A DNA stretch of 64,000 nucleotides from Nitrospirales bacterium (GCA_965223295.1 CBDCWC010000002.1:1184001-1248000); one strand, 5' to 3'; shown: positions 310 through 26,013, numbered from the stretch's first letter. The notes: generated from the sequence alone by a model not told the origin. Program-made: numbers and translations.

Positions 310-399
310 AATGAAGAGGTACGGCGTAATTAGTAAGGAAGAAGGGGTACGTCCCAGAGGTTTCTTCCCGCTCCTCACTCGTTACGATTCACGTTTCAC
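310..399. repeat. Heptamer purine-arm/pyrimidine-arm element A (DUF420-cheR junction)
   Basis: ggtacgg cgtaatt agtaagg aagaagg ... cctcact cgttacg attcacg tttcact, abutting the DUF420 stop. Confidence 0.65.
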
Positions 400-897
400 T
401 CATCTGGCTGGATACCAGTAAAACAACATGAGATACACAAGATACGCTGTCAGAATTGTCCCACCAAACGTCCATTCCATCACATGTCCTAGCCTGCGAT
501 GCAGAGACACTCCCGCCACCATAGCCCCTGCCCCAATACCATGCCGAAGACGACGCAACCCAATAACCATATTGGTACCACCAAGACCAATCGTAATAAG
601 GGCCAGCCCCGTATGCACGACAAGCAAGGGCATATACAACATCCAATATTCTTCTGATGTCCCACCAAAATGATCTCTCCCAAACATCAATTGTTTCGTG
701 ACATAGGCGACGAGCCAAATACCGACCAAGAGACAGGAAACCGTCATCCACTTTTTGTGAGACGCCACATCGTGACTTTTGGCTGCCCGGACACCCACTA
801 AAACCATGCCATAGGCCAGGGTCATACCCACCAACACTGCGCCCCATAACAGATCAACAATTCCCATTTGTGCGCCACGGAAGGGGATTTGAACCAT
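400..897 (-). CDS. DUF420-family membrane protein (start may be 867)
   Basis: Four hydrophobic helices, HKKWM, H-containing helix 3, HRRLG...TAYLVYLMLF C-terminus typical of DUF420. Confidence 0.75.
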   Translation of the reverse strand: MVQIPFRGAQMGIVDLLWGAVLVGMTLAYGMVLVGVRAAKSHDVASHKKWMTVSCLLVGIWLVAYVTKQLMFGRDHFGGTSEEYWMLYMPLLVVHTGLALITIGLGGTNMVIGLRRLRHGIGAGAMVAGVSLHRRLGHVMEWTFGGTILTAYLVYLMLFYWYPAR

Positions 898-981
898 AAA
901 TCGCTTGATCCGCTATACGTACTTCATACATAGAAGAAGTGAACTGAAACACTGGAATCAGGATTTCTTATACTCTGATAT

Positions 982-1008
982 CTATCGGCACAGGGGAGTG
1001 TAGAAATA
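982..1008 (-). promoter_or_regulatory. Candidate sigma28 (FliA) promoter for DUF420-cheR
   Basis: Minus strand TATT-N15-GCCGATAG; -10 nearly consensus GCCGATAA, -35 weak. Confidence 0.5.
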
Positions 1009-1060
1009 AGTCAAATTTTTCAATTTTTAAGGGATTTGACTGATCACATGTAGGAGAAAT

Positions 1061-1099
1061 AAAAAATGGCGTGGACGGCTCTGACACCATCCACGCCAT
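1061..1099 (-). terminator. Intrinsic terminator after the c-type heme protein gene
   Basis: Stem atggcgtgga/tccacgccat followed by a T6 run on the minus strand. Confidence 0.75.
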
Positions 1100-1129
1100 A
1101 ACATAAGGCGGTTGCCTGAGAAGTGAAGG

Positions 1130-1669
1130 TTATTTCATTCGGACCACAATCGCGCCCATGAAATCCCCTTTTTTCCAATCTTTTTTCGTCGTCTTGGGAT
1201 GCTCATTGTGACAAGAAGCGCAGCTATCAACGATCGCAAAGTCTGCGGACATACCAATCGTTTTTCCACCATCTTCACCTGTAATGACCTTTGCTTTTCC
1301 ACTGGCTAATGCAGCTAGCATTTCTTTTTCTTTAGGACTTTTTGCCGCATTTGAAGCATACAATGGGTCCGTTCCAAGAAGACCGATCTCAAAATCCCGA
1401 ACTTCTTTCCCAATTTCTTTGACAAATTGTGCAGGAAGCATGATGCCATGATCATCCTTCACCCAATCTTCATTCCCTTTTAAGCCCCCTTTTTTTGCAT
1501 CGGCAAGTACACCTTTGACAAAGACTGTTCTCGCAGCTTTGACCGCCGCTAACACATACTCGGCAGCTTTGCCCTTCGAAATGTCCGCTGCTTGCCCAGC
1601 AGGCAACATCATGAGTAGCCCCAAAACACATACTCCAAACATCATTGAGATTGTCGCTCCTCGTCTCAT
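1130..1669 (-). CDS. Exported monoheme c-type protein, Tll0287/DUF3365-like
   Basis: ATG 1669 preceded by GGAGGAG; signal peptide (..PAGQA/AD); LPAQF motif; CASCH heme-binding motif; GDFMGAIVV C-terminus. Confidence 0.8.
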   Translation of the reverse strand: MRRGATISMMFGVCVLGLLMMLPAGQAADISKGKAAEYVLAAVKAARTVFVKGVLADAKKGGLKGNEDWVKDDHGIMLPAQFVKEIGKEVRDFEIGLLGTDPLYASNAAKSPKEKEMLAALASGKAKVITGEDGGKTIGMSADFAIVDSCASCHNEHPKTTKKDWKKGDFMGAIVVRMK

Positions 1670-1773
1670 AGCTCCTCCCTCCGAAAAATGTTGGAAAACA
1701 TGATGTAACAATACGATCCGTAGTAGTTGGGGGAAGTGAAGAGTACACGACAATACCTGGAACAGTCAACTTC

Positions 1774-1876
1774 AAGGGAGGCGGAAAGGGAGAAGGTCGA
1801 AGTCAGGAGCAAGAACAGGAAGAACGCTACGAACGTTTCTTTACTATTCACTTCTCCCTTCTACCTTCTCACTTAT
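1774..1876. repeat. Heptamer element B (MCP-heme protein junction)
   Basis: agggaga aggtcga agtcagg agcaaga ... attcact tctccct tctacct tctcact, abutting the MCP stop. Confidence 0.75.
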
Positions 1877-3679
1877 TTAGAATTCTTCAAAAAAGTCATC
1901 ATCCACTTTATCTGCCTGATGCCCATTACTGCTGCCCACTGATATTGGCTTGGAACTCGCAAACGTCGTTGGCTTTAAAGCTGTACTTGCGTGGCTGGGT
2001 GAATGAGCTGGGTCCGAACTATGTCTATGACTTACGCTATTCTGATTATTTGCAATTCTCTGCCCGCTAACTCCCAAATCTTGCCCCTCAGTCTTGAAAA
2101 ATTCTACCTGCTCTAAAAGGGCTTCCGCTTGTTGCTTCATGGACTGCGACGCAGATGTAGCTTGCTCAACCAACGCCGCGTTCTGTTGTGTACCCTGATC
2201 CATTTGCATCACGGCCTTATTCACTTGATCGATACCACTGGCCTGCTCCTGCGAGGCGGCACTAATCTCGGCAATAATATCGGTCACGCGCTTCACGGAA
2301 TTTACAATTTCTTCTAGCGTCTTACCGGATTGATTCACCAGGTCACTACCATCACTCACTTTCTGGACAGACTCATTGATCAGAGATTTAATTTCTTTCG
2401 CTGCCGTAGCTGACCGTTGCGCTAGATTTCGCACTTCGGATGCCACGACCGCAAACCCGCGGCCTTGCTCCCCGGCCCGCGCCGCTTCCACTGCCGCATT
2501 GAGCGCTAGCAAATTGGTCTGGAACGCAATTTCATCAATCACATTAATAATATCTGCGATCTTTTTACTGCTCTTATTGATTTCATCCATAGCATTCACA
2601 GCTTTATCTGTAACCGCTCCGCCTTTTTCAGCCACTTCCCGCGCCGTCACCGCCAACTGATTGGCCTGCTTAGCATTATCGGCATTTTGTTTAATGGTAG
2701 AGGTCATCTCTTCCATGGAAGCACTGGTTTCCTCTAACGCACCAGCCTGGGAAGATGTCCGTTGCGACAAATCTTCATTCCCTTGGGAAATTTCCCTCGT
2801 TCCCGTCGTAATGCCAGACACCGCTGATTTGACGGACTGCACGACTTCCCCGACTCGGTCAAACATGACATTAAAGGATTCGCTGGCCCGTCCAATTTCA
2901 TCTCGGCTCACCATGGTGGCCCGTACAGATAAATCTCCGTCCTTAGCCAGCGCGGCCATCGCCTCTAACTCTTTCATGGGCTTAGTCACCATTCGAGAGA
3001 GCAACATGGCCAATAGACTCACGGTAACCAATCCGACGAACCCAATACCCATATATACAGTATTCAAATTAGAATCGAGTTGTGCCAGCGGCGCCCCCAT
3101 CGGAATCTGGACCGACACCGCTCCCAACATATCACCAACTTGTTTGCCTGCATGACAGGACACACAGGCTTTCACGCTGGCTAGATCCGCCGTCGCACGT
3201 CGATACATCATCTCCCCATCAACTGGTTCAATGCTCGTATATTCTTGTTGACCCGCGGCTAAAGCGGCTAAAGCTTGTTCTTCAAAAGAGTCTTGAGGAT
3301 GATTTGCTGGGTTTAAGGGAGTGGCACTGATGACTCGAGCGTCATAGACGCCTTCTTTGGCAAGAGTTTCTGAAGTTTCTCGAGTAAACGTCGCAGGGAA
3401 AGGAATTGTATCAGGCGCATCATGCTCCATACTCACTTTCATGCCAGCACCCTTGGCCTTGACCACAAACTGCTTAGCCACATAGGCCCGCGTCACTTGA
3501 ATTTGTTGTTCAATAATGCCTGCTTGATTGGACATCACTCGGTTCAAATCTCCTCGCAATTGCTCGCCAAGGAAATAGGCCCCACCAACCATCAATACTG
3601 CAAAGACCACTACTGTAGAAATGATGACCTTCGGCCCAATGCCCAATTCCTTCCACGTTCCCAGCGTACTCCCCTTCAT
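1877..3679 (-). CDS. Methyl-accepting chemotaxis protein with periplasmic c-type heme (DUF3365-like) sensor
   Basis: TM1, FPATF and CVSCH in the periplasmic part, TM2, [35 protein letters not shown]-terminal FFEEF pentapeptide. Confidence 0.92.
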
Positions 3680-3846
3680 AATCGCATATCCTCCTCGTTT
3701 AATATTCCCAACTTAACTCAGTTAAGAAAATATGAATGCCTGTCACGACTCTAAATGGTCTGCAATAGGCGTCTTGAGACCTTGATTATTCCTGTCTCAA
3801 TCCACTTCTTTATTCATCCCGACTATGGATTTTCTCCTAGTAGTAA

Positions 3847-6057
3847 TTAGAATTCTTCAAAAAAGTCGTCATCCGCTTGGCGCCGATTATGGCCATTGCT
3901 ACTCCCCACCCCAGCTAACTGCGGGGCTGGTTGGGGCACTGCCTTCACTGGCATGGGAGGCTTGATCACCTCACTCGCAGGTTTTGGCGCCGGGATCGAT
4001 GGGCCTAGGCCCGGTCGACAGCTACCATTGCCTCCTGTCGTCACCTTGAAAAACGCGACTTGCTCCAACAAGCCTGCAGCTTGCTGTTTCATGGACTGCG
4101 AAGCTGACGTGGCTTCTTCCACCAACGCCGCGTTCTGTTGCGTCCCCTGATCCATTTGCATCACGGCCTTATTCACCTGATCGATCCCACTGGCCTGCTC
4201 TTGCGAAGCCGCGCTGATCTCCGCAATGATGTCTGTTACCCGCTTGACAGAATTGACAATTTCATCCAACGTTTGGCCCGATTGATTCACTAACTCACTG
4301 CCGTCTCCCACTTTCTGCACCGATTCGTTGATCAAAGACTTAATTTCTTTGGCCGCAGTGGCAGAACGTTGAGCTAAATTGCGGACTTCCGACGCTACAA
4401 CCGCAAAGCCACGCCCCTGTTCTCCTGCTCGTGCGGCTTCTACCGCTGCATTCAAAGCAAGGAGATTTGTCTGAAAGGCAATTTCATCAATCACGTTAAT
4501 AATGTCCGCAATTTTCTTACTGCTGTTGTTGATTTCATCCATGGCCCCAACAGCTTTATCTGTGACTGCCCCACCTTTCTCTGCGACTTCCCGTGCCATC
4601 ACCGCCAGCTGATTGGCTTGTTTGGCATTATCAGCATTTTGTTTAATGGTGGAGGTCATTTCTTCCATCGAGGCACTGGTTTCTTCTAATGCCCCTGCTT
4701 GTGCCGAGGTTCGTTGGGAGAGATCTTCATTGCCTTGAGTAATTTCGGCTGAAGCCGTAGACACATGTTCAGCCGCTTGCCGGACTTTGCCAACCACCCC
4801 AGAAATATTATCCAACATGGCGTTCATAGCTTGGCCAAGTTGGCCTAACTCATCCTGGCTTGTCATGGTGGCCCGCTGAGTTAAGTCGCCGTCGGCTGCT
4901 TGTTGCGCGATATTACTGATCGCCACCAGGTTTCCAGCCCCTCGACGCCCAACCCACCAGCCTAGGGGAAGTAGCACCGCTAAGCAGATTAAACCGGTCA
5001 TGAGGACTTTGCTCTGGATTCCAAGAGCTTCGGCTACCGCTTCTTCTTCAGGTACCCGCACCAAAACTGACCAGTTCATACCCGGAAAACCTATGGCGCC
5101 TTGTAAATGGGTATAACCACCTACTTGGGTGATCCCTTTCCGCACATGGCGGCTAAACGCAAATCCTGATTCCCCTCGCACCGCCGCTTGGGCCACTTCC
5201 ACGCCTTTTTCGGCCAAGTTTAACTTCATCAGCACATCGAAATTTCGAACCACCTCTAGTGTGCCGGTCTTGCCAGGGTCATAGTCCACCAACACGCGGC
5301 CTTGACTATCTAAGACGGTTAACTCAGTACCCGGAAATCCCTGTTCTTTCAAATTGACATACACATCGGCAAACATTTGCTCGATCACACTAAAGTTCGT
5401 ACGATTGGTCCAATAGGCCACTACTCTGCCATTTTCGTCATAGACGGGCGTCGAGAAGCCCATTACCAACCCATCATTGCCTAACGCCTGCTTCACATCC
5501 GTATCAATATGTACATCTTCGATAAACGTGCCGGAGGAAATGTCATTGCCCGGCGCCGTAAAGGGCATCTTGGTCGTAAATTCGCCTACTTCCAAGGCCT
5601 TAAACCAGGCCGTCTCCTTGAAGTTTTTCTCAAACAAAAATTTGGAGTCGATCGGCTCTCCTTGCGCGTTCTGAAAGTTCACCGCAATGAGTTGACCTGC
5701 CGGATCAACAAGCATGGCCAAGTCATAAATGCCATACGCCACCACATATTTATTCATGACCTGACTGACCACGTTATATTCCGTGGGGTCATACCACTGT
5801 GACGTACGCGTGATCGCATCGTTATAGCCAAACGCTTGGACATCGCCATAGCGCTCAAAGAGATTGCGATCAATTTTTTCGGCTAACCCCTTGGCTTCTG
5901 ACTGGAACCGGGCGCCGACCTTGGCTTTCATGTCTTCGGCAGCCCCGAAGGCAATGAGGCCCACCGCAGTCATGGGAATGGCTCCGAAAATGACAAACAA
6001 AGCGACTAACTTCCCTGTGATGCCTAAACTTAGGAAACTTTTTTTTACACTGTTCAT
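3847..6057 (-). CDS. Methyl-accepting chemotaxis protein with large Cache-like periplasmic domain
   Basis: Two TMs flanking about 320 aa periplasmic region ending [15 protein letters not shown] signalling motif, FFEEF tail. Confidence 0.92.
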
Positions 6058-6201
6058 GATTCCTTCATCCTTGGCTTAATGTTTGTTGAGCATGTCTTGA
6101 GACAGTGGCACTCGACTCATATCTAATCCACATCTTGCCTAACTTATTGACATCTCACTCTCTTGTTCGTTTCCACATAAGTTTTTTATTGTCTCTTTAC
6201 T

Positions 6202-6741
6202 CTATGCAGTCCCTTCGACGCTTTCTGGATCCATCGGAATCTCGCCGACCGTTTTGACTTCCTCATCTGTTAATACTCGATCAATATCTAAGAGCGTCAC
6301 AAGGTGATCATTGGAGTTCCCAATTCCTGCTACAAAGGTGGTATCGACCGAACTTCCCAATTCCGGAGGAGGCTGAATGTCTTTCGCGTTCAAATCCAAT
6401 ACATCGGATACGGCATCGACTAAAAATCCCATCACTCGATTTCGGACATTCACAACTACCACAACTGTAAAAGAGGTCGGCTCGGTGACTCCCATGCCAA
6501 ATTTCAACCGGAGGTCCACAATTGGAACAATGGTGCCTCGCAAGTTCAGGACCCCTTTGAGATACTCCGGTGTATTCGGGATTTTTGTGACATTGGTATA
6601 GCCTTTAATTTCTTGAACTTTTAATATGTCTACGCCATAGAATTCACCTGCCAGATTAAAGGTCAGGTACTGTTGCCCATCACTGGAATAGGTCGTTTGA
6701 ATATCTGCTTGCTCGCTCGGTTCAATGGTTGCCGTGGTCAT
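6202..6741 (-). CDS. cheW: Chemotaxis coupling protein CheW
   Basis: QYLTFNL..YGVDILKVQEI..TKIPNTP..KGVLNLRGTIVPIVDLR. Confidence 0.95.
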   Translation of the reverse strand: MTTATIEPSEQADIQTTYSSDGQQYLTFNLAGEFYGVDILKVQEIKGYTNVTKIPNTPEYLKGVLNLRGTIVPIVDLRLKFGMGVTEPTSFTVVVVVNVRNRVMGFLVDAVSDVLDLNAKDIQPPPELGSSVDTTFVAGIGNSNDHLVTLLDIDRVLTDEEVKTVGEIPMDPESVEGTA

Positions 6742-6800
6742 AATTGCTCTCCTTCTTTATGTACGTCATCAATAGCATCCTCATCTTTTACAGTTTCCTT

Positions 6801-6925
6801 GGTAAGGAGTCAGGAGTAAGGCGAAAAAACCCAATTACTTTCTCTCATACCCTATATACTCTTTTTCTTATACCCCTTACTCTTTTTACTCCTTACTTTT
6901 GTACTTCTTACTTTTCACTTCTTCG
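6801..6925. repeat. Heptamer element C (cheA-cheW junction)
   Basis: ggtaagg agtcagg agtaagg ... ccttact ... ccttact tttgtact tcttact tttcact, abutting the cheA stop. Confidence 0.8.
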
Positions 6926-9022: not shown

Positions 9023-9038
9023 GAGGTACCTCATTGAA

Positions 9039-9090: not shown

Positions 9091-9109
9091 CCCAGGGCGA
9101 ATAGCTCGA

Positions 9110-9475: not shown

Positions 9476-9481
9476 AAAAAT

Positions 9482-10178: not shown

Positions 10179-10183
10179 CGCAA

Positions 10184-16499: not shown

Positions 16500-16502
16500 T
16501 CG

Positions 16503-17432: not shown

Positions 17433-18766
17433 CAGGAAGCGACCTCGGTCAAAGGTTGTGGGTCAGCACTTACCGTTCGTTGAGCACTCCACACTAGTTC
17501 GACCAGCAACTGCCGCGTCGCGACGTCTAAATCCTCTGGCACCCGTTGCCCCGCTGACAAGTACGACACTGGAATCCCAGCTTGCGACAACACGGAATAC
17601 ATGCCCCCATACTTAGATGTCTCATCAAGTTTTGTCATGATAATGTTGTGAATGGGCAACCCTTGATAGCGTCGAATGGTATCCACTTGAACAGTCTCAG
17701 CCATGGGGGCAGCCAAGACCAAGTGCGTGTCAATATGAAAAGAATTGCGTGTCATGGCTATGAGTTCTTCATGCCCTGCATGGTCTTTCGGGCTCCGGCC
17801 TGCTGTATCAATGAGAATCAAGTCCGCATCCTGATGCCGGCCAACACATTCCAGAAAATCTTGGTGCGACACCGCAACCTCTAGTGGAATTTTAAGAATT
17901 TTTGCAAAGACCCGAAGTTGTTCAACTGCTGCCACTCTATAGGTATCAAGTGTAATCAATACCGTTTTTTGCTGTTCGTCCCGTTCTCTAGCCAACCCAG
18001 CTAATTTGGCAATCGTTGTGGTTTTTCCAACACCAGTGGGCCCCACCAACATCATCATTTTCTGTCCATACTGTCGAGAAGCAACCCCCGTAGAAACCAC
18101 CAACGCTTTTTCCATTCGTTCTTGCAACAGACTGTTCACCACCTCACGGTTGGCCATCCCTGCTGTTCCTAAGGTTTCCACCACTGAACGTAAAAGACCA
18201 TGTGCCAACTGAGGATCCACACCCTGACTCACTAGCTTCTGATAGTCCTCGAGTAAATCACCCGGCAATCCCTCGACTCGTTTCTGCATTTGGCTGCCTA
18301 ACACGTCACCTACAACAACTCTCAGGTCTTCGATCTCTTGCCGTAAAGGACCTAATGTCTGTTCAGGATCTTTCTGGGATTCCCTCATTCGTTGAATTTC
18401 TTCTTTCATATCCTGTAAATGTTGCGTGACAGGATCTAGCACTGTTGCCACCTGCAACTGTTCCGAAAATGTCGGTTCATTTTTCATCTTTGGCTGCTCA
18501 CCATTCGGTTTAGCTGGAAGCAAAGGCTTTTTCATGAGCGCCTTAAGGGAACGATCCAATGTCACGGCAGGTTGAGAACCTTCAGTCTGTGCAGACTGAT
18601 CCACTGCAGCCGTGACTTCAATCACGGATTGACTCAGAAGACCAAACAGGCCCCCAGCTTTTTGTATTCGGCGCGAGGACACAATGACGGCATCCGGTCC
18701 CAGTTCAGCTTTGACTGCCTGAAGGGCTTCCTGTAGTGAAAGAGCTTCAAACCGTTTTAATTTCAT
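17432..18766 (-). CDS. flhF: Flagellar SRP-type GTPase FlhF
   Basis: VKAELGPDAVIVS, GPTGVGKTTTIAKLA, DTYRVAAVEQL, DTAGR, TKLDE, GQRVPEDL. Confidence 0.96.
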   Translation of the reverse strand: MKLKRFEALSLQEALQAVKAELGPDAVIVSSRRIQKAGGLFGLLSQSVIEVTAAVDQSAQTEGSQPAVTLDRSLKALMKKPLLPAKPNGEQPKMKNEPTFSEQLQVATVLDPVTQHLQDMKEEIQRMRESQKDPEQTLGPLRQEIEDLRVVVGDVLGSQMQKRVEGLPGDLLEDYQKLVSQGVDPQLAHGLLRSVVETLGTAGMANREVVNSLLQERMEKALVVSTGVASRQYGQKMMMLVGPTGVGKTTTIAKLAGLARERDEQQKTVLITLDTYRVAAVEQLRVFAKILKIPLEVAVSHQDFLECVGRHQDADLILIDTAGRSPKDHAGHEELIAMTRNSFHIDTHLVLAAPMAETVQVDTIRRYQGLPIHNIIMTKLDETSKYGGMYSVLSQAGIPVSYLSAGQRVPEDLDVATRQLLVELVWSAQRTVSADPQPLTEVAS

Positions 18767-20867
18767 GTGGCAACCTCACAACTTCAATGGCTTGAATTTT
18801 TGTTTTTGGATCTAACTCATTTGGCGACAACACGGCCAAGGCATGAATCCCTGGCGACACGAGTCGATACAACTGAGATCTGATCGACTGGGAACATAAA
18901 ACAATTGGTTGATATCCCTGACTGACGACTCGCTCAATGGCCTGCCGCACAGCCACAATGACTTCATTGAAAAGATTAGGTGATAATCCCGGTTGTTCCA
19001 CACCACTGGGCTTAATCGCTTCAGTTAACCGGCGGTCTAACATCGGGTCTAAACTCACAACGTGCACATACCCATCGGCATTGGCATATTGGGTGGAGAT
19101 CGTTCTAGATAAATTTTGCCGGGCATATTCCGTCAGGGTGTCAGGATCTTTACTCACAGTGGTGTAATCCGCGACAGTCTCCAAAATCGTGCGTAAATCC
19201 CGTATGGAAACTCGTTCACGTAGAAGATTTCTTAAGATTCTCACCACAACTCCTAACGTTAATTGGGTGGGGATAAGCTCATCCACCACCTTGGGATACG
19301 TCTTAGCCAAGTTATCCAGCAAATTCTGGGCCTCTTGGCGACCCAGCAATTCATGCCCATTAGTTTTAATGAGTTCCGTTAAATGTGTTGCGATAATGGC
19401 CGGACCATCCACGACTGTATAGCCCTCCATTTGCGCCCGTTCTTTCTCAGTGGGTGCGATCCACACGGCCGGCAACCCAAAACAGGGATCCTGTCCAGGC
19501 TTGCCTTCTAATCCCTTTCTGGCATGTCCAGGATTGATAGCCAATAAATGCCTCGGAACCAATTCGCCTTTGGCTATTTGAATACCTTTGAGCAAAATAC
19601 TGTATTCATGAGGTTTCAGCTGGAGGTTATCTCGAATATGCACCGAAGGCACCACGAAGCCCATATCTAAAGCCGTCTGCTTGCGAATGGCTCGAATACG
19701 CTCTAAGAGCTCACCGCCTTGCGCATGGTCGACAAACGGCACCAGACCGTACCCTACATGGAGTTCTAACAAATCAGGAGGCGCAACCGTATCCACAGAT
19801 TCCGTGGCAGGGGCTTCGGATTTCTCAGGATGGGCAATTGCCCCTTTTTGAGGACTCGCCGCTTCCTCCAGCACAGTCTGCTTACGATTCCAAAGCACGT
19901 ATGCGACACCAGCTGTCATGGCTCCAAGCAGCAAAAAGGCCAGATGAGGCAAGCCCGGCAATAACCCCAGAAAAACTAACATGGCTGCAACAGCGGCAAC
20001 CAAATGGGGATTGAAAAAAATTTGCTCGGTTAAGTCCCGACCGAGACTCGTCGTCGTGGAAACCCTAGTGATAATGATACCGGCTGCAGTGGACATAATG
20101 AGCGCCGGAATTTGCGCTACAATAGCATCCCCGACCGTTAAGAGCGTAAACCGTTTAGCCGCCGCCACAACCGACATGTTATGCTCCATGACTCCGATCG
20201 TTAAGCCTCCTAGCACATTGATAAAGATTATCAACAGCGCAGCTACAGCATCGCCTCGAACGAATTTACTCGCACCATCCATCGAACCATAAAAATCAGC
20301 TTCTTGCGAGATCATTTCCCGTCGCTTCCGGGCTTCCGCTTCGTCAATAATTCCTGCATTGAGATCCGCATCAATACTCATTTGCCGGCCCGGCATCGCG
20401 TCTAACGTAAATCGCGCGGCGACTTCGGCGATACGCGTCGCACCCTTGGTAATCACCACAAAATTAATAATGACCAAGATAGAAAACACCACGATACCAA
20501 CGGCAAAATTTCCGCCTACAACAAATTCACCAAAGACACGAATCACTTCTCCTGCTGCCGCCGGCCCTTCATTGCCATGCAACAAAATGGCTCTGGTCGA
20601 GGCAATATTCAACGCTAACCGGTATAGGGTCGTGAGTAGAACTATTGAAGGGAACACCGAAAACTCTGCAGGACGCCCTGAATGCATCGTGACGAGCAAA
20701 ATTAACATTGCCAAGGTGATGCTAAACGACAAAAACAAATCCAGCATGAAGGAGGGGAGCGGCAGGAGCATCAGCAGCAGAAGACCGACGACACCGACTG
20801 GCAGCAGCACATCTCCATAGTGTGCTGGCATCATTTCATTTTTGAATCGTTCGCTATCAAACGCCAT
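18747..20867 (-). CDS. flhA: Flagellar export gate protein FlhA
   Basis: RIAEVAARFTLDAMPGRQMSIDADLNAG, EADFYGSMDGASKFVRGDA. Confidence 0.97.
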   Translation of the reverse strand: MAFDSERFKNEMMPAHYGDVLLPVGVVGLLLLMLLPLPSFMLDLFLSFSITLAMLILLVTMHSGRPAEFSVFPSIVLLTTLYRLALNIASTRAILLHGNEGPAAAGEVIRVFGEFVVGGNFAVGIVVFSILVIINFVVITKGATRIAEVAARFTLDAMPGRQMSIDADLNAGIIDEAEARKRREMISQEADFYGSMDGASKFVRGDAVAALLIIFINVLGGLTIGVMEHNMSVVAAAKRFTLLTVGDAIVAQIPALIMSTAAGIIITRVSTTTSLGRDLTEQIFFNPHLVAAVAAMLVFLGLLPGLPHLAFLLLGAMTAGVAYVLWNRKQTVLEEAASPQKGAIAHPEKSEAPATESVDTVAPPDLLELHVGYGLVPFVDHAQGGELLERIRAIRKQTALDMGFVVPSVHIRDNLQLKPHEYSILLKGIQIAKGELVPRHLLAINPGHARKGLEGKPGQDPCFGLPAVWIAPTEKERAQMEGYTVVDGPAIIATHLTELIKTNGHELLGRQEAQNLLDNLAKTYPKVVDELIPTQLTLGVVVRILRNLLRERVSIRDLRTILETVADYTTVSKDPDTLTEYARQNLSRTISTQYANADGYVHVVSLDPMLDRRLTEAIKPSGVEQPGLSPNLFNEVIVAVRQAIERVVSQGYQPIVLCSQSIRSQLYRLVSPGIHALAVLSPNELDPKTKIQAIEVVRLPHEIKTV

Positions 20868-20875
20868 AAGTATCT

Positions 20876-21955
20876 CTAGCTAGCCTGTTCTTGTGGATTT
20901 CGTAGACGATAAACATAGGCCAACACCTCCGCCGCCGCTTGATAGAGCGCCGCAGGAATTTCTTGTCCTACCTTCGTGGCTTTAAATAAACCACGAGCCA
21001 GACTCCGATTTTCTAGTATCGGCACGCTCGAATGACGGGCAATTTGCTTGATCTTCTCGGCCATAAATCCAGCACCTTTGGCCACAACCACAGGCGCATC
21101 CATACTCGCCGTGTCATAGCGAAGAGCGACTGCCACGTGCGTCGGATTGGTAATCACAACATCGGCTTGTGGAACAGCTTGCAACATGCGCTGGCGCGAC
21201 CGTTCCCGCTGCAAGCTCAATCGACGAGAGCGAATTTGCGGATCCCCTTCGACATCTTTCGATTCATCTTTCACTTCCTGCTTCGTCATTTTTAAATCTT
21301 CGGTGTGCTGCCACTTTTGGTAAATGAAATCGATAATGGCTAATATGAGTAACGCTCCGCCGACAGACCATACAATATTTTGTACCAAACCCCAGGTCTG
21401 GGAAATCGACCCGGATATTCCCAAAATGGGAAACTGGACAAGGTATTGGAGACCTTGGGACAGCACAAAGTAGATAATCCCGGCCACCATACTGATCTTG
21501 AGAATGGACTTGAGAAGTTCAGCGATGCCTTTCCAAGAAAACAGCCGTTTCACACCATTCATGGGATTTAATTTCGATGGTTTGGGCTTAATGCCTTCTT
21601 CAACCCATAAAAACCCTGTTTGCATAAGAATCGCCCCTAATGCCAAGACAGCGACAATCAAGACAAAAGGAATAAGAGGCACAAAGGCTTGATTGGTAAT
21701 GTTGGTGAAGAGGATATGGATCGTCCGCTGATCAATCTGTAGCGTCCCTGCCTGCTCAAACCAGTAACGATAATGCCCGGAGAATTCTCGCAGAAATTGA
21801 GGAGCCCAGAGAGAAATGGCGCCAACGCCGCCGAGCAACACAAACAAGGGTGGCAGCTCGCGCGTCATGGGCACTTGCCCTTTTCGGCGCGCCTCGGCTA
21901 ACTTTTTGCTAGTAGGTTGTTCAGATTTTTCTCCCCCGTCTTTGTTCTCAGCCAT
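20876..21955 (-). CDS. flhB: Flagellar export protein FlhB
   Basis: ARRKGQV, KMTKQEVKDE, ITNPTH autocleavage motif. Confidence 0.97.
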   Translation of the reverse strand: MAENKDGGEKSEQPTSKKLAEARRKGQVPMTRELPPLFVLLGGVGAISLWAPQFLREFSGHYRYWFEQAGTLQIDQRTIHILFTNITNQAFVPLIPFVLIVAVLALGAILMQTGFLWVEEGIKPKPSKLNPMNGVKRLFSWKGIAELLKSILKISMVAGIIYFVLSQGLQYLVQFPILGISGSISQTWGLVQNIVWSVGGALLILAIIDFIYQKWQHTEDLKMTKQEVKDESKDVEGDPQIRSRRLSLQRERSRQRMLQAVPQADVVITNPTHVAVALRYDTASMDAPVVVAKGAGFMAEKIKQIARHSSVPILENRSLARGLFKATKVGQEIPAALYQAAAEVLAYVYRLRNPQEQAS

Positions 21956-22733
21956 CGCCTAATCCCTGCAAAAGTTCCCAGAGAATAGTTTCCATTTCCA
22001 GCACGGATTGTTGAAACACCAACGCAATGAACGGCAATCCAAGCCCCAAGACGATAAGACCCACCGAAATAGTGATGGGGAAACTGGTCAGTAAAATATT
22101 CATTTGTGGTACAAGGCGTCCCAGAAGCCCCATGGTAATATGCACAAGGAACGTGGCCGCCATCACCGGTAACGCCAGCCGCATCCCAATGTCATAAGTC
22201 CGTTGCATTAATCCAGTGACATCAGGGAGAAGTGGCGCACTCAAATGAGCACCAAACGGAGGAATGAGCTGGAAGCTACTCCCTAACGCTAAGAGCACCA
22301 ATAAGTGTCCGTCCACTTGAAAATATAAAAGAGTGGCCAGCACCGTCATCAGTTGACCAAAGACCGGTGTTTGGACCTGCGTGACCGGATCCAGAACATT
22401 GGCCATCGCAAATCCCACTTGAAATCCGAGAACATTTCCTGCCAGCTCGACCGCCGCCATGACCAACCGCATCGCCAACCCCAGTATCAATCCAACGAGT
22501 AATTCGGCCCCTACGGCCATCACCAAATATCCTGGCTCCAGCCAATTGGGATGAAGGGAAAATGTGACGACCGGGGTGAGAATCACGGAGACCGCTACGG
22601 CTAACCCAACTTTGATGCGCTGCGGGACTGTTCGACCTCCCAACAAAGGCAAGGCGGCCAAAATAGCCCCGGTTCGCACCAAGACCACAAGAAATTGCCA
22701 CACCTGTTGCATTGCGATATCCCATTGCAACAC
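21948..22733 (-). CDS. fliR: Flagellar export protein FliR
   Basis: ELLVGLILG, QVGF...DP, GLLGRLVPQMNI; position. Confidence 0.93.
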   Translation of the reverse strand: MLQWDIAMQQVWQFLVVLVRTGAILAALPLLGGRTVPQRIKVGLAVAVSVILTPVVTFSLHPNWLEPGYLVMAVGAELLVGLILGLAMRLVMAAVELAGNVLGFQVGFAMANVLDPVTQVQTPVFGQLMTVLATLLYFQVDGHLLVLLALGSSFQLIPPFGAHLSAPLLPDVTGLMQRTYDIGMRLALPVMAATFLVHITMGLLGRLVPQMNILLTSFPITISVGLIVLGLGLPFIALVFQQSVLEMETILWELLQGLGDG

Positions 22734-22762: not shown

Positions 22763-22850
22763 CGTCAGGAGCAAGGGACAAGAGACGAGAAGAGATGTAC
22801 CATCTGCTATTCTTTTTACTTTTCACTTTTCACTCCTCGCTTCTTACTGT
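22763..22850. repeat. Heptamer element H (fliQ-fliR junction)
   Basis: cgtcagg agcaagg gacaaga gacgaga ... ttttact tttcact tttcact cctcgct tcttact, next to the fliQ stop. Confidence 0.8.
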
Positions 22851-22852
22851 CT

Positions 22853-23122
22853 TCACTGCGCCATCTGAGGAATTTGACCCCAAACACCGGTCATAAATCC
22901 CACAAGAATTTGTAGCATCCATGGGAACATGACTAACAACACAATGAACATGGTCATAATTTTTGGCAAAAAGGTCAGTGTCATTTCATTAATTTGAGTC
23001 ATGGCTTGAAATATACTGACCATCAAGCCTACGACTAAACTCAGCCCCAACATCGGCCCCGCCACGAATAAAATCGTTTTAATCGCTTCCTGTCCTACAG
23101 CCATCACACCTTCGGGAGTCAT
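22853..23122 (-). CDS. fliQ: Flagellar export protein FliQ
   Basis: VGLMVSIFQAMTQINEMTLTFLPK. Confidence 0.95.
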   Translation of the reverse strand: MTPEGVMAVGQEAIKTILFVAGPMLGLSLVVGLMVSIFQAMTQINEMTLTFLPKIMTMFIVLLVMFPWMLQILVGFMTGVWGQIPQMAQ

Positions 23123-23133
23123 GTCTTTATCCT

Positions 23134-23222
23134 TGTAAAAAGTGAAATGGGAGAAGTAAAAAAGTGACAGGTATTTGCTGTTCTTTCTTTACACTTTTTC
23201 CTTTTCCCTTCCACTCTCGTTA
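23134..23222. repeat. Heptamer element I (fliP-fliQ junction)
   Basis: tgtaaaa agtgaaa tgggaga agtaaaa ... ttacact ttttcct tttccct, next to the fliP stop. Confidence 0.7.
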
Positions 23223-24029
23223 TTATTGAAAACTGTTCATGAGTGAACCCACAACGAGAAACCACCCATCAGCCAGTACAAACAACACGAGCTTGAAGGG
23301 CAACGAAATCATGATTGGGGGGAGCATCATCATCCCCATAGACATCAAGGTACTTGCCACAATCATATCGATAACGAGAAAGGGTACATAAATTAAAAAC
23401 CCAATCTGAAAAGCAGTTCGCAATTCGCTCGTCACAAATGCAGGCACCAGCACATGAAACGGGACATCTTTCACGGTCTGAGGGTCGGGAATTTTTCCCA
23501 TACTCATAAACATGCCCAAGTCTTTTTCTCTCACTTGTTTCAACATAAACTCACGAATCGGCTCCATGGCCTTCTGCATCGCAACTTCTTGCGTCACCTG
23601 ATTTTCTAAAAATGGATTCAGCGCTTCTGTTCGGACCTGTTCCCACACCGGCATCATGATGAAGAGCGTTAAGAATAAGGCCAATCCAATCATGACTTGA
23701 TTGGGAGGCGCATGAATGGTCCCCAAGGCTTGCCGAAGAAGACCCAAAACAATCACGACTCGCGTAAAAGACGTCACCAGCATCAACAAAGCCGGTGCTA
23801 ACGTTAAAACTGTCAGCATGAACAGAATGCGTATGCCAAAAGTCCATGGTTCGGTCGCATCTAAACCAGATACTTGCAAACTAATCGTGGGATCCTTTGT
23901 TCCTTGGGCAAATACATCGGTCACTGGACTCATCAAATCATTCATCAAGAACACAAAACAGAAAGTCAGGCCCCCTGTTCTTTTGGATAACCAAGCCTGC
24001 CTGAACGCATTCAAATGTTTCATGAGCAT
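23223..24029 (-). CDS. fliP: Flagellar export protein FliP
   Basis: TSFTRVVIVL, PPNQV, PAFVTSEL, MGMMMLPPIMISLPFKL. Confidence 0.97.
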   Translation of the reverse strand: MLMKHLNAFRQAWLSKRTGGLTFCFVFLMNDLMSPVTDVFAQGTKDPTISLQVSGLDATEPWTFGIRILFMLTVLTLAPALLMLVTSFTRVVIVLGLLRQALGTIHAPPNQVMIGLALFLTLFIMMPVWEQVRTEALNPFLENQVTQEVAMQKAMEPIREFMLKQVREKDLGMFMSMGKIPDPQTVKDVPFHVLVPAFVTSELRTAFQIGFLIYVPFLVIDMIVASTLMSMGMMMLPPIMISLPFKLVLFVLADGWFLVVGSLMNSFQ

Positions 24030-24427
24030 TTAGAGAGCCGAGTGGCAGAAGTGTGAGATAAAGACTCAGGCTCGCCCTTCCCTGAATTTTTCTGTGACCA
24101 TTGACCTATCCATTCTCCAATACGACCGACCACAGGATCAGCTTGCACTCGCACCTGCATAGCTCGTTCCTTATCAGCGATCTTAGTCAACAAGATCATG
24201 TCCCTAGCAGTTGTGCCTAAGACTAAAACCTCACCAGCCACATCAACCAACATGATTTGTTTTCCCGTTCCGATTCGAAGACCGCCTAACACACGCATAA
24301 GAGGTTCGCCGCTCTTCCCGGCATGTTCTCCAAACATTCGCCGTACCCAAGCTAATCCGCCCAGCAGGATCAGTACAACTAAAGCTAAAGCTCCAGCCAT
24401 TTTCAGTACTTCATGTGTAAAATCCAT
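24020..24427 (-). CDS. fliO: Flagellar protein FliO
   Basis: Single TM then IMLVDVAGEVLVLGTT; between fliN and fliP. Confidence 0.82.
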   Translation of the reverse strand: MDFTHEVLKMAGALALVVLILLGGLAWVRRMFGEHAGKSGEPLMRVLGGLRIGTGKQIMLVDVAGEVLVLGTTARDMILLTKIADKERAMQVRVQADPVVGRIGEWIGQWSQKNSGKGEPESLSHTSATRLSKCS

Positions 24428-24474
24428 TTTTTCCTTTAGAGATAGAGCGTGGACCAGCTTACGTCCTTAAGTCT

Positions 24475-24891
24475 TTATCCAAGTTTATTCACCCGTTCCG
24501 TTGCACTAATCACATCCGTCAGACGAATGCCAAATTTTTCGTTGACCATGACGACTTCTCCCCGTGCCACAAGACGCTCATTCACCAATACCTCTAACGG
24601 CTCACCGGCTAACTTATCGAGTTCCACAATAGACCCTGGACCAAGCTGCAATAAATCTTTAATCAACATTCTGGTATTACCCAATTGCGCCGATAACACC
24701 AGCGGGATATCTAATATTCGATCAAGGTTTGAATTTTGCGGAGCCGACAATTCCGGGACAGCTGGAGGCGGGGGGGGAGGTGGCGGAGACGATACCTCCT
24801 CACCTTTTCCAGCCGCTTCCTGAGCCAGAGCCTCCATCATTTCCTTCTCGGCATCAAATGTATCCATATCTACATTGTCATCATCACTCAT
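24475..24891 (-). CDS. fliN: Flagellar motor switch protein FliN
   Basis: ILDIPL, LDKLAGEPL, ARGEVVMVNEKFGIRLTD. Confidence 0.95.
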   Translation of the reverse strand: MSDDDNVDMDTFDAEKEMMEALAQEAAGKGEEVSSPPPPPPPPAVPELSAPQNSNLDRILDIPLVLSAQLGNTRMLIKDLLQLGPGSIVELDKLAGEPLEVLVNERLVARGEVVMVNEKFGIRLTDVISATERVNKLG

Positions 24892-24950
24892 GAGTCATCT
24901 CCATATTTTCAGAATATTCCCGTTCTCATTGACCATATTGAGACCCCGTC

Positions 24951-25934
24951 TTACTCCGGAACCTCCATGACTTGGTGAATTTGGAAGGATTGCATCCCCT
25001 TTGATGTTCCTGGAAACCCGAGAAATTTTGGTACACCCTCCACTGTCGCAGTTAATGGCTGTGAGGTCGTTTGATTTAAAGTAATGACATCACCTTCTGA
25101 AAAATTCATAAAATCTTCGACCGACAATTCGGCTTCTCCCAACTTGATCGAGATATTGACTGGGGCTTCCTTGAGTCTGCTAGAAAATCGCTTAATCCAC
25201 CCATGATCCAATTCATAAAAGTCACTTTGAAAGCTGACTTGCAACCGATCACGAATCGGTTCAAGCATGGCATAGGGAAGGCAGAGATGAAGATCTCCCA
25301 CCGAATTGCCGAGTTCAATGCCTAAGGTCACGACAATTACGACATCCGCTGGCAGTACGATCGAGGCCAACTGAGGGTTCATTTCTGCCCGCACAGCTTT
25401 GATGGCCACTTTCTGAACCGGCTCCCAGGCTTTCTGTAGATCCCTCAACCCCATGGCCATCACCTTGCGCATCACCCGCTGTTCAATCAGAGTAAAGTCT
25501 TGTCCTTCAGGTTTGACATGAGTTTGCCCCGCTCCACCAAAAAAGTGATCCACAAGAAGATAGACGGTTGCGGCATCAGTCGCGACCATGGCAGTCCCTC
25601 GCAAAGGCTCCATAGAAATAATTTGAAGATAGGCAGGAACGGGAAGACGTTTCGTGAATTCCCCGAACTTTTGGACGGTTTGGTTGGTGATTGTCACTTC
25701 AACCGTTTTTCGCAAGATGTCACTCAGGGCTAAACGAAAAAGCCGAGAAAACTGCTGGTGAATAACATCCAAGGTCGGCATGCGACCTCGGATCACCCAT
25801 TCCTGGTTTCCTAGATCGTAGGGAACGGGCCCGTCTTGAGGTTCTTCAGCCTCAGGCGCTTCAGTTTCAACATCCCCATCCGACACGCCACGAAGGAGGG
25901 CATCGACTTCATCTTGGCTAAGAATTTTTTCCAT
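24951..25934 (-). CDS. fliM: Flagellar motor switch protein FliM
   Basis: N-terminal ILSQDEVDALL, FFGG.G, FTLIE, LCLPYAMLEPI. Confidence 0.96.
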   Translation of the reverse strand: MEKILSQDEVDALLRGVSDGDVETEAPEAEEPQDGPVPYDLGNQEWVIRGRMPTLDVIHQQFSRLFRLALSDILRKTVEVTITNQTVQKFGEFTKRLPVPAYLQIISMEPLRGTAMVATDAATVYLLVDHFFGGAGQTHVKPEGQDFTLIEQRVMRKVMAMGLRDLQKAWEPVQKVAIKAVRAEMNPQLASIVLPADVVIVVTLGIELGNSVGDLHLCLPYAMLEPIRDRLQVSFQSDFYELDHGWIKRFSSRLKEAPVNISIKLGEAELSVEDFMNFSEGDVITLNQTTSQPLTATVEGVPKFLGFPGTSKGMQSFQIHQVMEVPE

Positions 25935-26013
25935 AAAATATATCGAATGGCAATCAAGTAAACGGTTCTATCCCTTTACACTCCTGCCTCATCACGACTC
26001 CTATTTCATGACT

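Follow-up and report, generated by a model that had tools for sequence, protein, structure and literature searches.

Heptamer-array hairpins at gene junctions of a Nitrospirales motility cluster, with a PF05635 (S23p) gene between two of the arms

Heptamer elements in the window and in the genome

The DNA analysed, hereafter the window, is a stretch of 64,000 nt from a Nitrospirales bacterium (GCA_965223295.1 CBDCWC010000002.1:1184001-1248000) that carries che and fli genes. Several junctions between these genes hold an intergenic element in which a purine-rich array of degenerate heptamers is followed by a pyrimidine-rich one, an order abbreviated RY below. The elements are listed here together with the four-helix-bundle gene that lies among them; non-coding features are given without strand, "empty" denotes a hairpin without a gene, and fold z-scores refer to the sense strand compared with shuffles.

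310-402: empty hairpin at the junction of the DUF420 gene (400-897, minus) with cheR (3-290, minus); RY array 319-399; purine arm ~328-348, pyrimidine arm ~360-402; GT spacing 7, 7, 7 in the pyrimidine arm (minus-strand reading); weak fold, z -1.37
1772-1878: empty hairpin at the junction of an MCP gene (1877-3679, minus) with a Tll0287-like gene (1130-1753, minus); array 1838-1872; purine arm 1772-1830, pyrimidine arm 1836-1878; -34.7 kcal/mol, z -2.95
6801-6925: empty hairpin in the gap that separates cheA (6926-9034, minus) from cheW (6202-6741, minus); RY locus 6802-6925; a long purine array (mRNA strand) begins right at the cheA stop codon; GT spacing 7, 7, 8, 7, 9, 7; z -2.17
9035-9100: distal arm of the cassette, between the stop of the four-helix-bundle gene and the start of cheA, identified from the sequence; array 9061-9088; purine-rich on the plus strand, hence the pyrimidine arm on the mRNA
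9110-9475, minus: PF05635 (23S rRNA intervening-sequence protein, S23p) four-helix-bundle gene, 121 aa, identified by Pfam profile match
9482-9626: gap between cheY and the four-helix-bundle gene; the outer arm spans 9560-9626, and the inner hairpin, which is complete, 9484-9559; RY locus 9483-9622; -42.2 kcal/mol, z -1.77
10068-10178: empty hairpin in the gap that separates an MCP gene (10184-11326, minus) from cheY (9627-9998, minus); array 10123-10178; GT spacing 7, 7, 7; -43.2 kcal/mol, z -3.50
15600-15715: possible distant relative where the HDOD gene (14701-15570, plus) converges with fliA (15720-16499, minus); hairpin z -2.41, with a terminator-like inner stem
22763-22850: degenerate element in the gap that separates fliQ (22853-23122, minus) from fliR (21948-22733, minus); array 22806-22847, score 27.7; both arms present with poor complementarity; GT spacing 14, 7, 7; fold not better than shuffles, z +0.60
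23134-23222: empty hairpin between fliP (23223-24029, minus) and fliQ; array 23135-23162; -26.5 kcal/mol, z -4.03, the best of the window set

A preliminary description of this DNA had proposed that seven main junctions share the heptamer design, and all seven were recovered blind by a weight-matrix chain scan, which additionally found an eighth arm (9061-9088) absent from that list. The same scan detected no array between 23.2 and 64 kb of the window, in agreement with the earlier remark that no clear copy was seen in the lptD-moa-cob half. The three weaker sites named there fared differently: the one at 15600-15715 is indeed a hairpin between convergent genes but lies under the threshold of the heptamer matrix, the one at 25945-26013 consists of two small unrelated hairpins, and the one at 37740-37816 folds no better than shuffles (z +0.7). 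The quality of folding was uneven among the elements, with z from -4.03 to +0.60, and three of the seven window elements folded weakly or no better than shuffles. Intrinsic terminators were considered and rejected: across window positions 1-20000, a range that holds all elements but the two at 22763-23222, no terminator-like match fell on an element, the one match close by being the inner stem at 15655-15674, and the total of 18 matches was close to the shuffle expectation of 18.9.

When the genome was scanned with a GTRARRN weight matrix, 87 period-7 array loci were found. Chains scoring at least 16 numbered 187 at period 7, compared to 23, 34 and 45 at periods 6, 8 and 9, respectively, and to 6 in a third-order Markov simulation of 1.94 Mb; chains of at least four units were likewise most frequent at period 7 (15, vs 4 and 0 at periods 6 and 8, respectively). 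The exact pattern GTRARRNGTRARRNGTRARR occurred 24 times, and its period 6, 8 and 9 versions each 0 times. Within the arms of the window elements, GT dinucleotides are spaced by 7, 14, 21 or 28. The GT-GT spacing in intergenic purine tracts had its maximum at 7 (161, vs 77 and 74 at 6 and 8), which was kept when the window was left out (135 vs 75 and 71). The period of seven in the arms is real. It did not appear as a lag-7 peak in the base autocorrelation of all intergenic DNA, the check that had been put forward earlier, because the elements make up too small a share of that DNA.

The copies have period and words in common rather than exact sequence, as had been described: among the 87 loci, the longest alignment between any two was 35 nt and the longest perfect match 24 nt. 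With alignments this short, recent copy-and-paste can be dismissed, and MITEs were rejected, as there are no near-identical copies among the 87 loci. Arrays were present on both strands within 250 nt at 25 loci, and the purine arm precedes the pyrimidine arm in 24 of these two-armed loci (binomial p 1.5e-6).

By crude gene calls, 55 of the 87 array loci were less than 60% coding. These non-coding loci lie between co-directional genes in 36 cases, convergent genes in 16 and divergent genes in 3, whereas divergent gaps account for 453 of all 2065 gaps of at least 60 nt (Fisher p 0.0014). The arrays start 0-17 nt past the upstream stop codon, and one element is located in the 23S-5S spacer, a processed RNA. 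The 24.5 kb of the che/fla cluster account for ten array loci, and the elements are concentrated in the che/fla and pilus clusters; the link to motility genes made in the preliminary description thus holds as an enrichment but not as an exclusive association.

For 36 loci, the sense and antisense strands folded equally well, with the sense fold lower in 19 of 36, and the numbers of G-U pairs in this comparison (174 vs 145) were not significantly different. The comparison thus does not point to selection for mRNA structure. Composition alone is enough for purine and pyrimidine arms to pair: in the outer stem of the window cassette, arms 9035-9100 and 9560-9626 pair at -48.7 kcal/mol, which corresponds to a z of only -0.4 against composition-matched shuffles.

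The four-helix-bundle gene and its arms

The gene at 9110-9475, previously noted to sit inside the array, is flanked by a purine arm upstream and a pyrimidine arm downstream, and is physically part of the repeat family. Its product matched PF05635 with 134.8 bits (cut-off 33.8) over profile positions 1-106 of 106. A search of the genome with PF05635 returned one match (134.4 bits), so that a single copy stands beside 87 array loci. Compared with congeners, the gene has a dN/dS of 0.17-0.26. The protein also matched PDB 2gsc_A over residues 3-92 (E 1e-29), an entry deposited as five chains. XCC0516, of the PF05635/S23p family, we take to be a pentameric ring of four-helix-bundle subunits. According to the available text of PMC4990558, 2gsc is a homopentamer.

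The kinship with Avd, the accessory protein of diversity-generating retroelements (DGRs), that had been suggested for the family of this gene stood in part: the fold families are related, but the Pfam bAvd match was weak (31.5 bits, under the cut-off of 40). A DGR accessory system was rejected, as the genome gave no RVT_1 match and, unlike a DGR, has no reverse transcriptase gene. An intervening sequence (IVS) at a 23S site was rejected as well, because the cassette lies between cheY and cheA and not in helix 25 or 45 of 23S; the single 23S gene matches its model end to end (3010 nt vs a 2925-position model), with no array locus inside. IVS-like terminal inverted repeats are present around the ORF, and their duplex reached a z of -2 or below in 14 of 24 cassettes of the genus.

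The association of gene and arrays extends beyond the genus. Every one of the other PF05635 genes examined in relatives had inverted heptamer arrays on both sides. At 78 PF05635 loci from many phyla, a lag-7 flank was found upstream in 64 and downstream in 70, and the flanks were complementary in 35 of the 48 clearly periodic loci. Elsewhere, PF05635 genes are flanked by other words, such as GGTCTGT, ATGGCAG, CGTTAAN and TTCAGTN. Our literature search found no paper describing a link between heptamer repeats and PF05635, and the available sections of three heptamer-repeat papers (PMC4679880, PMC2670836 and PMC4692102) make no mention of the gene.

Turnover of cassette and hairpins across the genus

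In 24 of 50 genomes of the genus, the cassette is found between cheY and cheA with the gene between arms, and the A-type cassettes of relatives have the common layout arm, hairpin, gene, arm. Eight of these 24 cassettes have a broken gene, and the intact genes have dN/dS values of 0.04-0.33. The cassette tree conflicts with the tree of the flanking CheA (AU p 3e-35 and 4e-107), and in 8 of 10 pairs the cassette had a lower dS than the cheY next to it. Purifying selection keeps the four-helix-bundle gene where it is intact; losses of the gene are frequent, and congeners exchange it. The tree conflict and the low dS lend some support to the earlier idea of a mobile cassette; empty repeat scars left by such a cassette are plausible for a single site, the cheY-cheA gap of genome G017, but cannot explain most copies.

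The hairpins turn over as well. At the cheA-cheW junction, an element is present in 12 of 15 relatives' loci (L001-L006, L008-L011, L014, L015), written in other words, and the hairpins in the cheA-cheW and MCP-cheY gaps of congeners use either AGTRARR or CGTRAGG, depending on the species. In three congeners (G004, G009 and G014), the whole genome lacks heptamers and these gaps are plain; their operons work without the elements, and any function is therefore dispensable. In G017 and G052, arrays persist without any PF05635 gene. Long perfect arrays in relatives resemble fresh expansions, for example the 14 overlapping matches in G015:C51.

Relation to known repeats and interpretation

REP, BIME and REPIN sequences are dispersed intergenic palindromes past operon stop codons that affect mRNA stability and are associated with RAYT transposases. 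The present elements are likewise dispersed intergenic palindromes after stop codons in operons. Assignment to REP/REPIN was rejected, as there is no conserved palindromic unit and the copies have only a 7-base word in common; a RAYT link was rejected too, as the five Y1_Tnp matches have no array locus within 10 kb (nearest 13.7 kb).

The cassette resembles the 23S IVS of Coxiella burnetii and Leptospira, as the available text of PMC4990558 presents them, in having a decay-prone PF05635/S23p gene in the loop of a terminal-inverted-repeat stem and tandem heptamers of variable copy number upstream of the ORF. In Coxiella, the S23p ORF lies in the loop, the heptamers are tandem GACAGAT units, and the 28-bp terminal stem is cut by RNase III. 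Unlike the IVS, which sits in helix 45 of 23S rRNA, the cassette here is hosted by a chemotaxis operon mRNA, most copies are gene-less, and the stems are putative RNase III substrates, whereas the Coxiella stem is an actual one. In the 5'-UTR of Haemophilus influenzae hmw1A, (ATCTTTC)n forms one arm of a long hairpin whose processing by RNase III alters both expression and repeat number (PMC12721329, available text). That heptamer arm likewise pairs pyrimidine-rich with purine-rich sequence; it is a single 5'-UTR locus serving adhesin phase variation, whereas the present elements number in the dozens, are intercistronic and have two periodic arms.

The elements also have the features of STRR-type repeats, being tandem 7-nt units, intergenic, over-represented relative to other periods, and arranged as convergent stem-loop pairs. 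The sources, as far as their available sections go, describe cyanobacterial STRR hairpins between hupS and hupL (PMC2670836), GGGGAYT heptamer repeats in Nostoc (PMC4692102), TAACTGA repeats in Beggiatoaceae (PMC4679880), and Xanthomonas GGGAATC arrays, which form convergent pairs nearer the 5' neighbouring ORF and recur between the same genes of two species while varying in sequence (PMC4692102). The elements share with these repeats the tandem 7-base intergenic units, often in convergent stem-loop pairs, the position nearer the upstream ORF, and the recurrence at the same gene pairs of related species with variable sequence. They differ in the word (GTRARRN), the phylum (Nitrospirales), the strict arm order (24/25 purine first), the concentration in che/fla and pilus clusters, and the presence of a PF05635 gene in one element.

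We favour, with about even confidence, the reading that the elements are heptamer hairpins like the STRR, from a widespread class of heptamer-array palindromes to which the Xanthomonas GGGAATC arrays also belong. They would represent, without the gene, the stem found around PF05635 (S23p) genes in 23S rRNA intervening sequences, and would be transcribed in operons and either cut by RNase III or protective of RNA ends. An element consists of a tandem GTRARRN array, a short loop and a complementary array. As the elements lie just past stop codons in long co-directional operons, they would be transcribed within polycistronic mRNA, where they may fold into imperfect stems of 20-40 bp. Cleavage by RNase III, whose gene is present in the genome, or protection of neighbouring RNA ends would be the most likely consequence; by analogy with two published heptamer hairpins, the stems are probably cut by RNase III. 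The che/fla transcripts might thereby be split into segments of differing stability, with a possible effect on expression. In their evolution, the elements resemble dispensable, fast-turnover repeats rather than conserved regulators, and the four-helix-bundle gene is the cargo of one stem.

Rather unlikely, judging from the sequence comparisons, is a protein-plus-repeat system, the idea put forward earlier, in which PF05635 oligomers would bind one heptamer word with each subunit or surface and act in trans on all copies to control processing, translation or stability. Such binding would fit the findings that the gene always travels with heptamer arrays and that the word differs by cassette: two protein types, A and S, match two arm words, and the four-helix-bundle tree groups by word, not by species. 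Moreover, the neighbouring empty hairpins have the cassette's word in 11 of 11 S-type and in 7 A-type loci, the sister-species contrasts (G001 vs G006, G012 vs G015) fit the match of word and type, and PF05635 was found in 15 of 19 genomes with the heptamer pattern compared to 2 of 12 without it. The purifying selection on intact genes and the homopentameric, five-chain structure of the closest solved relative, 2gsc (PMC4990558, available text), also argue for it. However, five A-type cassettes lie among S-type or mixed neighbours (G003, G041, G053, G031 and G057), G012 has an A-type protein yet more S than A arrays (68 vs 35), and G058, with 126 A-type matches, has only a divergent PF05635 gene with other arms. 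The arrays retained in G017 and G052, the broken genes and the single gene for 87 loci count against it too, and related genomes are non-independent observations. Because the protein gene and the arms are adjacent, their linkage needs no recognition. The match between word variant and protein type is only partial. We would give only a small probability to the further idea that PF05635 rings are sequence-specific partners of the arrays, with each subfamily reading, or writing and maintaining, its own word and the cassette seeding RNase III-cleavable stems in operons and rRNA spacers. If this were true, the A and S alleles, whose words differ in the seventh base, would be a natural specificity swap, and both the very large, unassigned PF05635 family and the bacterial heptamer repeats would gain a function.

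A selfish or mutational process at the DNA level, which we consider doubtful, would have the cassette insert or recombine, the arrays slip and the arms be corrected by hairpin-templated synthesis, with the products tolerated past stop codons and devoid of RNA function. The coordinated change of both arms could be produced by replication slippage and hairpin-templated correction without selection. Variable presence among congeners, the many degenerate and poorly folding copies, the lack of sense-strand bias, the incongruence of the cassette and CheA trees together with the dS pattern, and the fresh-looking arrays such as G015:C51 are all consistent with this process, and an excess of heptamer repeats has been tied to polymerase slippage (PMC4692102, available text). 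Against it stand the findings that no copy pair exceeds 35 aligned bases, that the genome has no reverse transcriptase gene, that no array locus is found within 10 kb of a Y1-transposase gene, and that the hairpin persists at the same junctions across most of the genus; this persistence and the 24-to-1 arm order need a directional mechanism or selection. Quite improbable, in our estimate, is that the arrays act as ribosome stand-by sites or are bound by a cold-shock or S1-like host protein that recognises single-stranded RNA and covers ~7 nt. S1, Csp or Csr proteins have been proposed as readers of TAACTGA repeats (MacGregor 2015, PMC4679880), and CspB binds one protein per heptamer as cited there, in the available text. 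The purine arm is 5' on the mRNA, directly past the stop codon, and purine words such as AAGGAG and GTGAGGA resemble Shine-Dalgarno sequences, with AGGA or GGAG in many A-type words. Yet the common words GTGAAAA and GTAAAAA are not Shine-Dalgarno-like, the four words named above from PF05635 genes elsewhere are unrelated to Shine-Dalgarno sequences, and pairing with the complementary arm would hide the sites.

Heptamer repeats have been known since the cyanobacterial STRR, and PF05635 proteins since the first rRNA intervening sequences; to our knowledge, neither has an established function. One element with a four-helix-bundle gene in its loop ties the bacterial heptamer repeats to the inserts of rRNA genes. 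If the stems are RNase III sites, as in the STRR-like reading that we favour, they would be a common and overlooked way of segmenting long operon transcripts, and if the protein reads the repeats, the very large family PF05635 would acquire a role. The genus offers a compact natural experiment, with species that have and species that lack the repeats, one fixed junction at which the cassette is intact, broken or absent, and two protein alleles paired with two words.

Genomic setting and heptamer period of the elements

The source Nitrospirales genome (G000; other G numbers denote relatives, L numbers extracted loci and C numbers contigs) comprises 3.78 Mb in three contigs with 47% G+C. The window from 1 to 26.5 kb is a single long run of minus-strand genes, whose first part holds cheR, a DUF420 gene, a Tll0287-like gene, two MCP genes, cheW, cheA, a PF05635 gene, cheY and another MCP gene, and whose remainder holds STAS and response-regulator genes, fliA, flhG, flhF, flhA, flhB, fliR, fliQ, fliP, fliO, fliN, fliM and fliL. 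Genes were called crudely as longest ORFs, and cheY was replaced by one wrong ORF in these calls. Three CheA paralogues lie on the same strand within about 45 kb (G000:C2:1150001-1195326, covering L112, L113 and window 1-11326), each with its own CheW, CheB, CheR and MCP genes, and motAB and flgFG adjoin them.

At the seven main sites, read from either strand, a purine-rich run was followed by a short spacer and a pyrimidine-rich run, with GT dinucleotides spaced by 7, 14, 21 or 28 within the arms. The consensus of 149 units was G-T-(A/G)-A-(G/A)-(A/G)-A, which is the AGTRARR unit of the preliminary description read in another phase. Chains of at least four units numbered 15 at period 7, compared to four at period 6 and none at period 8, while weight-matrix chains scoring at least 16 numbered 187 at period 7 and 23, 34, and 45 at periods 6, 8, and 9, respectively; a third-order Markov simulation of 1.94 Mb gave six weight-matrix chains. 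The exact pattern GTRARRNGTRARRNGTRARR occurred 24 times, and its period 6, 8, and 9 versions not once. In intergenic purine tracts, a GT-GT spacing of 7 was found 161 times (spacings of 6 and 8, 77 and 74 times), and outside the window 135 times (75 and 71, respectively). The base autocorrelation that had been proposed gave no lag-7 peak across the full 534 kb of intergenic DNA, because the elements make up too small a share of it, and was superseded by the tract-specific and matrix scans. The observation of period-7 purine/pyrimidine arm elements is thereby confirmed, with period 7 far exceeding periods 6, 8, and 9.

When matrix hits over the whole G000 genome were clustered, 112 arrays fell into 87 loci, which included all seven main sites and an arm at 9061-9088. 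No array locus was located between 23.2 and 64 kb of the window, in agreement with the preliminary description. No two of the 87 loci shared more than 35 aligned bases; as had been suggested, the family has a word and a plan in common, not a sequence.

The PF05635 cassette and its counterparts in other phyla

PF05635 (S23p) occurs once in G000, at 9110-9475, and the encoded four-helix-bundle protein matched Xanthomonas XCC0516 (2gsc) at E 1e-29. The gene does sit inside the array, with a purine arm on one side and a pyrimidine arm on the other. On the mRNA (minus) strand, between the cheY stop and the cheA start, the cassette reads:

9626-9560, minus strand: purine arm, after the cheY stop
9559-9484, minus strand: complete small hairpin
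9475-9110, minus strand: PF05635 ORF
9100-9035, minus strand: pyrimidine arm, before the cheA start

Cassettes of the genus come in two protein types, A and S, which go along with two arm words that differ in the seventh base. The A-type layout of arm, complete small hairpin, ORF and arm (hairpin at window 9484-9559 and at the corresponding position in L118-L123 and L130) gives the 5ʹ purine arm two possible pyrimidine partners, one excluding and one enclosing the ORF. The inner hairpin is missing from S-type cassettes. In the S-type cassettes L002, L005, and L011 (from G001, G015, and G002, respectively), the reading frame continues into the pyrimidine arm for 10-23 extra residues (e.g., SPNALRLTLHEK...), which are absent from A-type proteins.

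All ten PF05635 loci at other sites in relatives were flanked on either side by inverted heptamer arrays, every locus with its own word (GGTCTGT, ATGGCAG, GTTTCAN, CGTTAAN, TTCAGTN or TATGGCN). We then sampled 80 PF05635 loci from many phyla, 78 of which had both flanks present. The best self-similarity lag was 7 for 64 of the upstream and 70 of the downstream flanks, compared to six cases inside the ORF. Fifty loci were clearly periodic on both sides, and removal of two with one masked flank left 48. In 35 of these 48, reverse-complementing the downstream word gave the upstream word with at most one mismatch, against one locus in direct comparison, and the purine-richer arm lay upstream in 38 and downstream in 7, with 3 ties. 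By eye, words with GT in a purine context (CGTGAAA, CGTGAGG, GAGTGAG, AGTGGCG, GCAGTGA, AGTGATT) recurred in many unrelated cassettes among L027-L106, and near-identical words such as CGTGAAA turned up in different phyla. There are hints of a common core in cassette words across phyla.

A comparable arrangement is described for the 23S rRNA intervening sequence (IVS) of Coxiella, in which an S23p ORF lies in the loop above a 28-bp terminal stem, tandem GACAGAT heptamers of strain-variable number precede the decaying ORF, and RNase III excises the IVS in vitro at mapped ends (Warrier et al. 2016, PMC4990558). We found no literature link between the PF05635 family and heptamer repeats, including in the best 10 of 76 results for a Nitrospira query.

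Distribution of cassettes and words among relatives, and exchange or replacement of cassettes

The heptamer pattern was present in 14 of the 18 first-sampled congeners and in four of four sister-family genomes (reversed-pattern control, 0-5), and was not found in eight genomes from two further families. Of the 50 genomes in the genus, 34 carried the A variant, with A as its seventh base, and 35 the S variant, with C or G at that position. Per-genome counts include overlapping matches, so that long perfect arrays inflate some of them. Long perfect GTGAGGC arrays with at least 14 overlapping matches were seen at G015:C51:27783-27893 and G042:C38:3-127, and resemble newly arisen, microsatellite-like expansions of the same word. 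Hairpins were found at the cheA-cheW and MCP-cheY junctions of nearly all heptamer-bearing species, with differing words. The cheA-cheW element of G000 and that of its closest relative, whose CheA is 91% identical, were alike only in the outer 25 nt, and both arms differed inside.

Around cheA in 15 relatives, the four-helix-bundle gene lay between cheY and cheA in nine, five had a short plain gap, and one had a 448-nt gap without the gene. A further 14 genomes, found via the protein, carried the gene at the same junction, giving 24 of the 50 genomes when G000 is included. In eight of these 24 (G006, G018, G007, G041, G036, G032, G031, and G053) it was broken by stops or frame changes. The dN/dS values of intact cassette genes were 0.04-0.33, and those of the adjacent cheY 0.00-0.03. 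Three genomes with no heptamers at all (G004, G009, and G014) had plain gaps and no cassette, and G017 had lost the gene and retained a remnant arm.

In the CheA tree, G001 and G006 (support 98/93) and G012 and G015 (100/100) were sisters, and each pair combined one A-type with one S-type cassette. The four-helix-bundle tree grouped five A-type cassettes together (87/90), and its data rejected both CheA sister pairs (AU p 3e-35 and 4e-107). Synonymous divergence was lower in the cassette gene than in cheY in eight of the ten pairs with estimates. The tree conflict and the lower synonymous divergence indicate that the site stayed fixed while its cassette was exchanged or replaced.

Hairpins neighboring S-type cassettes were S-type in 11 of 11 cases. 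Among 12 A-type cassettes with neighbors available, seven (G000, G016, G006, G012, G042, G059, and G060) had A-type neighbors and five (G003, G041, G053, G031, and G057) had S-type or mixed ones. Two sister contrasts in one clade supported a protein-word link; the contrast in the other clade did not. G012 has an A-type protein, yet more S than A matches genome-wide. G058, with the most A-type arrays among the congeners (126 matches), lacks the cheY-cheA cassette; its only PF05635 gene, at L116 (G058:C4:3155600-3157300), is divergent (77.5 bits) and has arms of GTKTGAA words. Arrays were also present in G017 and G052, neither of which has a PF05635 gene. The gene was present in 15 of 19 pattern-bearing genomes compared to 2 of 12 pattern-free ones, which is weak evidence as related genomes are not independent. 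Genus-wide co-variation of word variant and protein type was only partial, amounting to about three independent contrasts, and no statistical claim is made for it. From these sequence comparisons, a functional link between the PF05635 protein and the heptamer word is possible, and the idea of a protein that may read the repeats, while unproven, is still alive. S1, Csp or Csr proteins have been proposed to read TAACTGA repeats (MacGregor 2015, PMC4679880).

Arm order, position and interpretation of the elements

Where arrays on the two strands lay no more than 250 nt apart (25 loci), the GTRARRN array came first and its complement second in 24 (p 1.5e-6), and this purine-then-pyrimidine order is identical whichever strand is read. 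In G025, from a sister family, the MCP-cheY gap and the one intact PF05635 cassette (L014 and L018) had the opposite order, a GTTTCAN array followed by a TGAAACN array, and another G025 locus had the usual one; the 24 to 1 rule seen in G000 is thus not universal. A proposal that the longer of the two arms always takes the 5ʹ position on the mRNA was dropped, with counts of 8 and 7 among co-directional minus-strand one-arm loci.

Ten of the 87 loci lay within 24.5 kb (C2 1182640-1207162), where 0.56 were expected (Poisson p 5e-10), and the flanking 34 kb upstream contained further chemotaxis and flagellar genes and three more loci. Six loci formed a second cluster (C3 1580683-1601672) amid hybrid histidine kinases and a type IV pilus/MSHA-like gene set, and other clusters were located among housekeeping genes, so that the motility enrichment is real and not exclusive. 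By the crude gene calls, 55 mostly non-coding loci occupied 36 co-directional, 16 convergent, and three divergent gaps (one of the latter a known miscall), compared to 453 divergent among 2065 background gaps of at least 60 nt, indicating that array loci are rarer between divergent genes (p 0.0014). Arrays started 0-17 nt past the upstream stop codon; distances to downstream start codons were left out, because the crude calls make them unreliable. In Xanthomonas, convergent heptamer arrays are reported to lie closer to the 5ʹ neighboring ORF and to occupy the same gene pairs in two species while varying in sequence (Rehm et al. 2015, PMC4692102), and the hupS-hupL gap is described as containing hairpins of STRR, the cyanobacterial heptamer repeats (PMC2670836). 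One further hairpin of the family, with purine and pyrimidine arms (AGAAGTGAAAAGTAAGGAATGAGAAG ... CTTATCTTATACTCC), was observed in a 105-nt 23S-5S spacer (L117 4511-4615; G000:C3:1354090-1354194), which places one copy in a processed rRNA precursor, though outside the 23S gene.

The sense-strand fold z scores against shuffles for the seven main sites in order were −1.4, −3.0, −2.2, −1.8, −3.5, +0.6, and −4.0. Of three weaker sites put forward in the preliminary description, 15600-15715 formed a comparable hairpin, while 25945-26013 held two small unrelated hairpins and 37740-37816 folded no better than shuffles. A sense-strand test on fold energy and G-U pairs was not significant, and an Rfam search of the window matched no family.

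Other readings of the elements were rejected. Against a terminator reading, those in window 1-20000 were not terminator-like. An ordinary terminator candidate, a clean GC-rich stem of 14 bp followed by a T run, lies downstream of the Tll0287-like gene at window 1066-1099 (minus strand) and is unlike the heptamer elements. A RAYT/REP reading was rejected because the copies lack a conserved sequence and no array locus lies within 10 kb of the five Y1-transposase genes, and a diversity-generating retroelement was rejected because no reverse transcriptase gene is present in the G000 genome.

A transcribed (ATCTTTC)n array is described as one arm of a long hairpin processed by RNase III, and expression and changes in repeat number both hinge on this processing (Rapun-Araiz et al. 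2025, PMC12721329). Against RNA-level selection in G000 stand the lack of sense-strand bias, the weak folding of several copies and the pairing of arms by composition alone, and for these reasons our confidence in the functional part of the reading is moderate. The best reading is that the elements are heptamer hairpins of the STRR kind and represent IVS-type cassettes in their gene-less form. They would be transcribed within operons and, by analogy with the processed hairpins, are probably cut by RNase III; they are dispensable and show rapid turnover.
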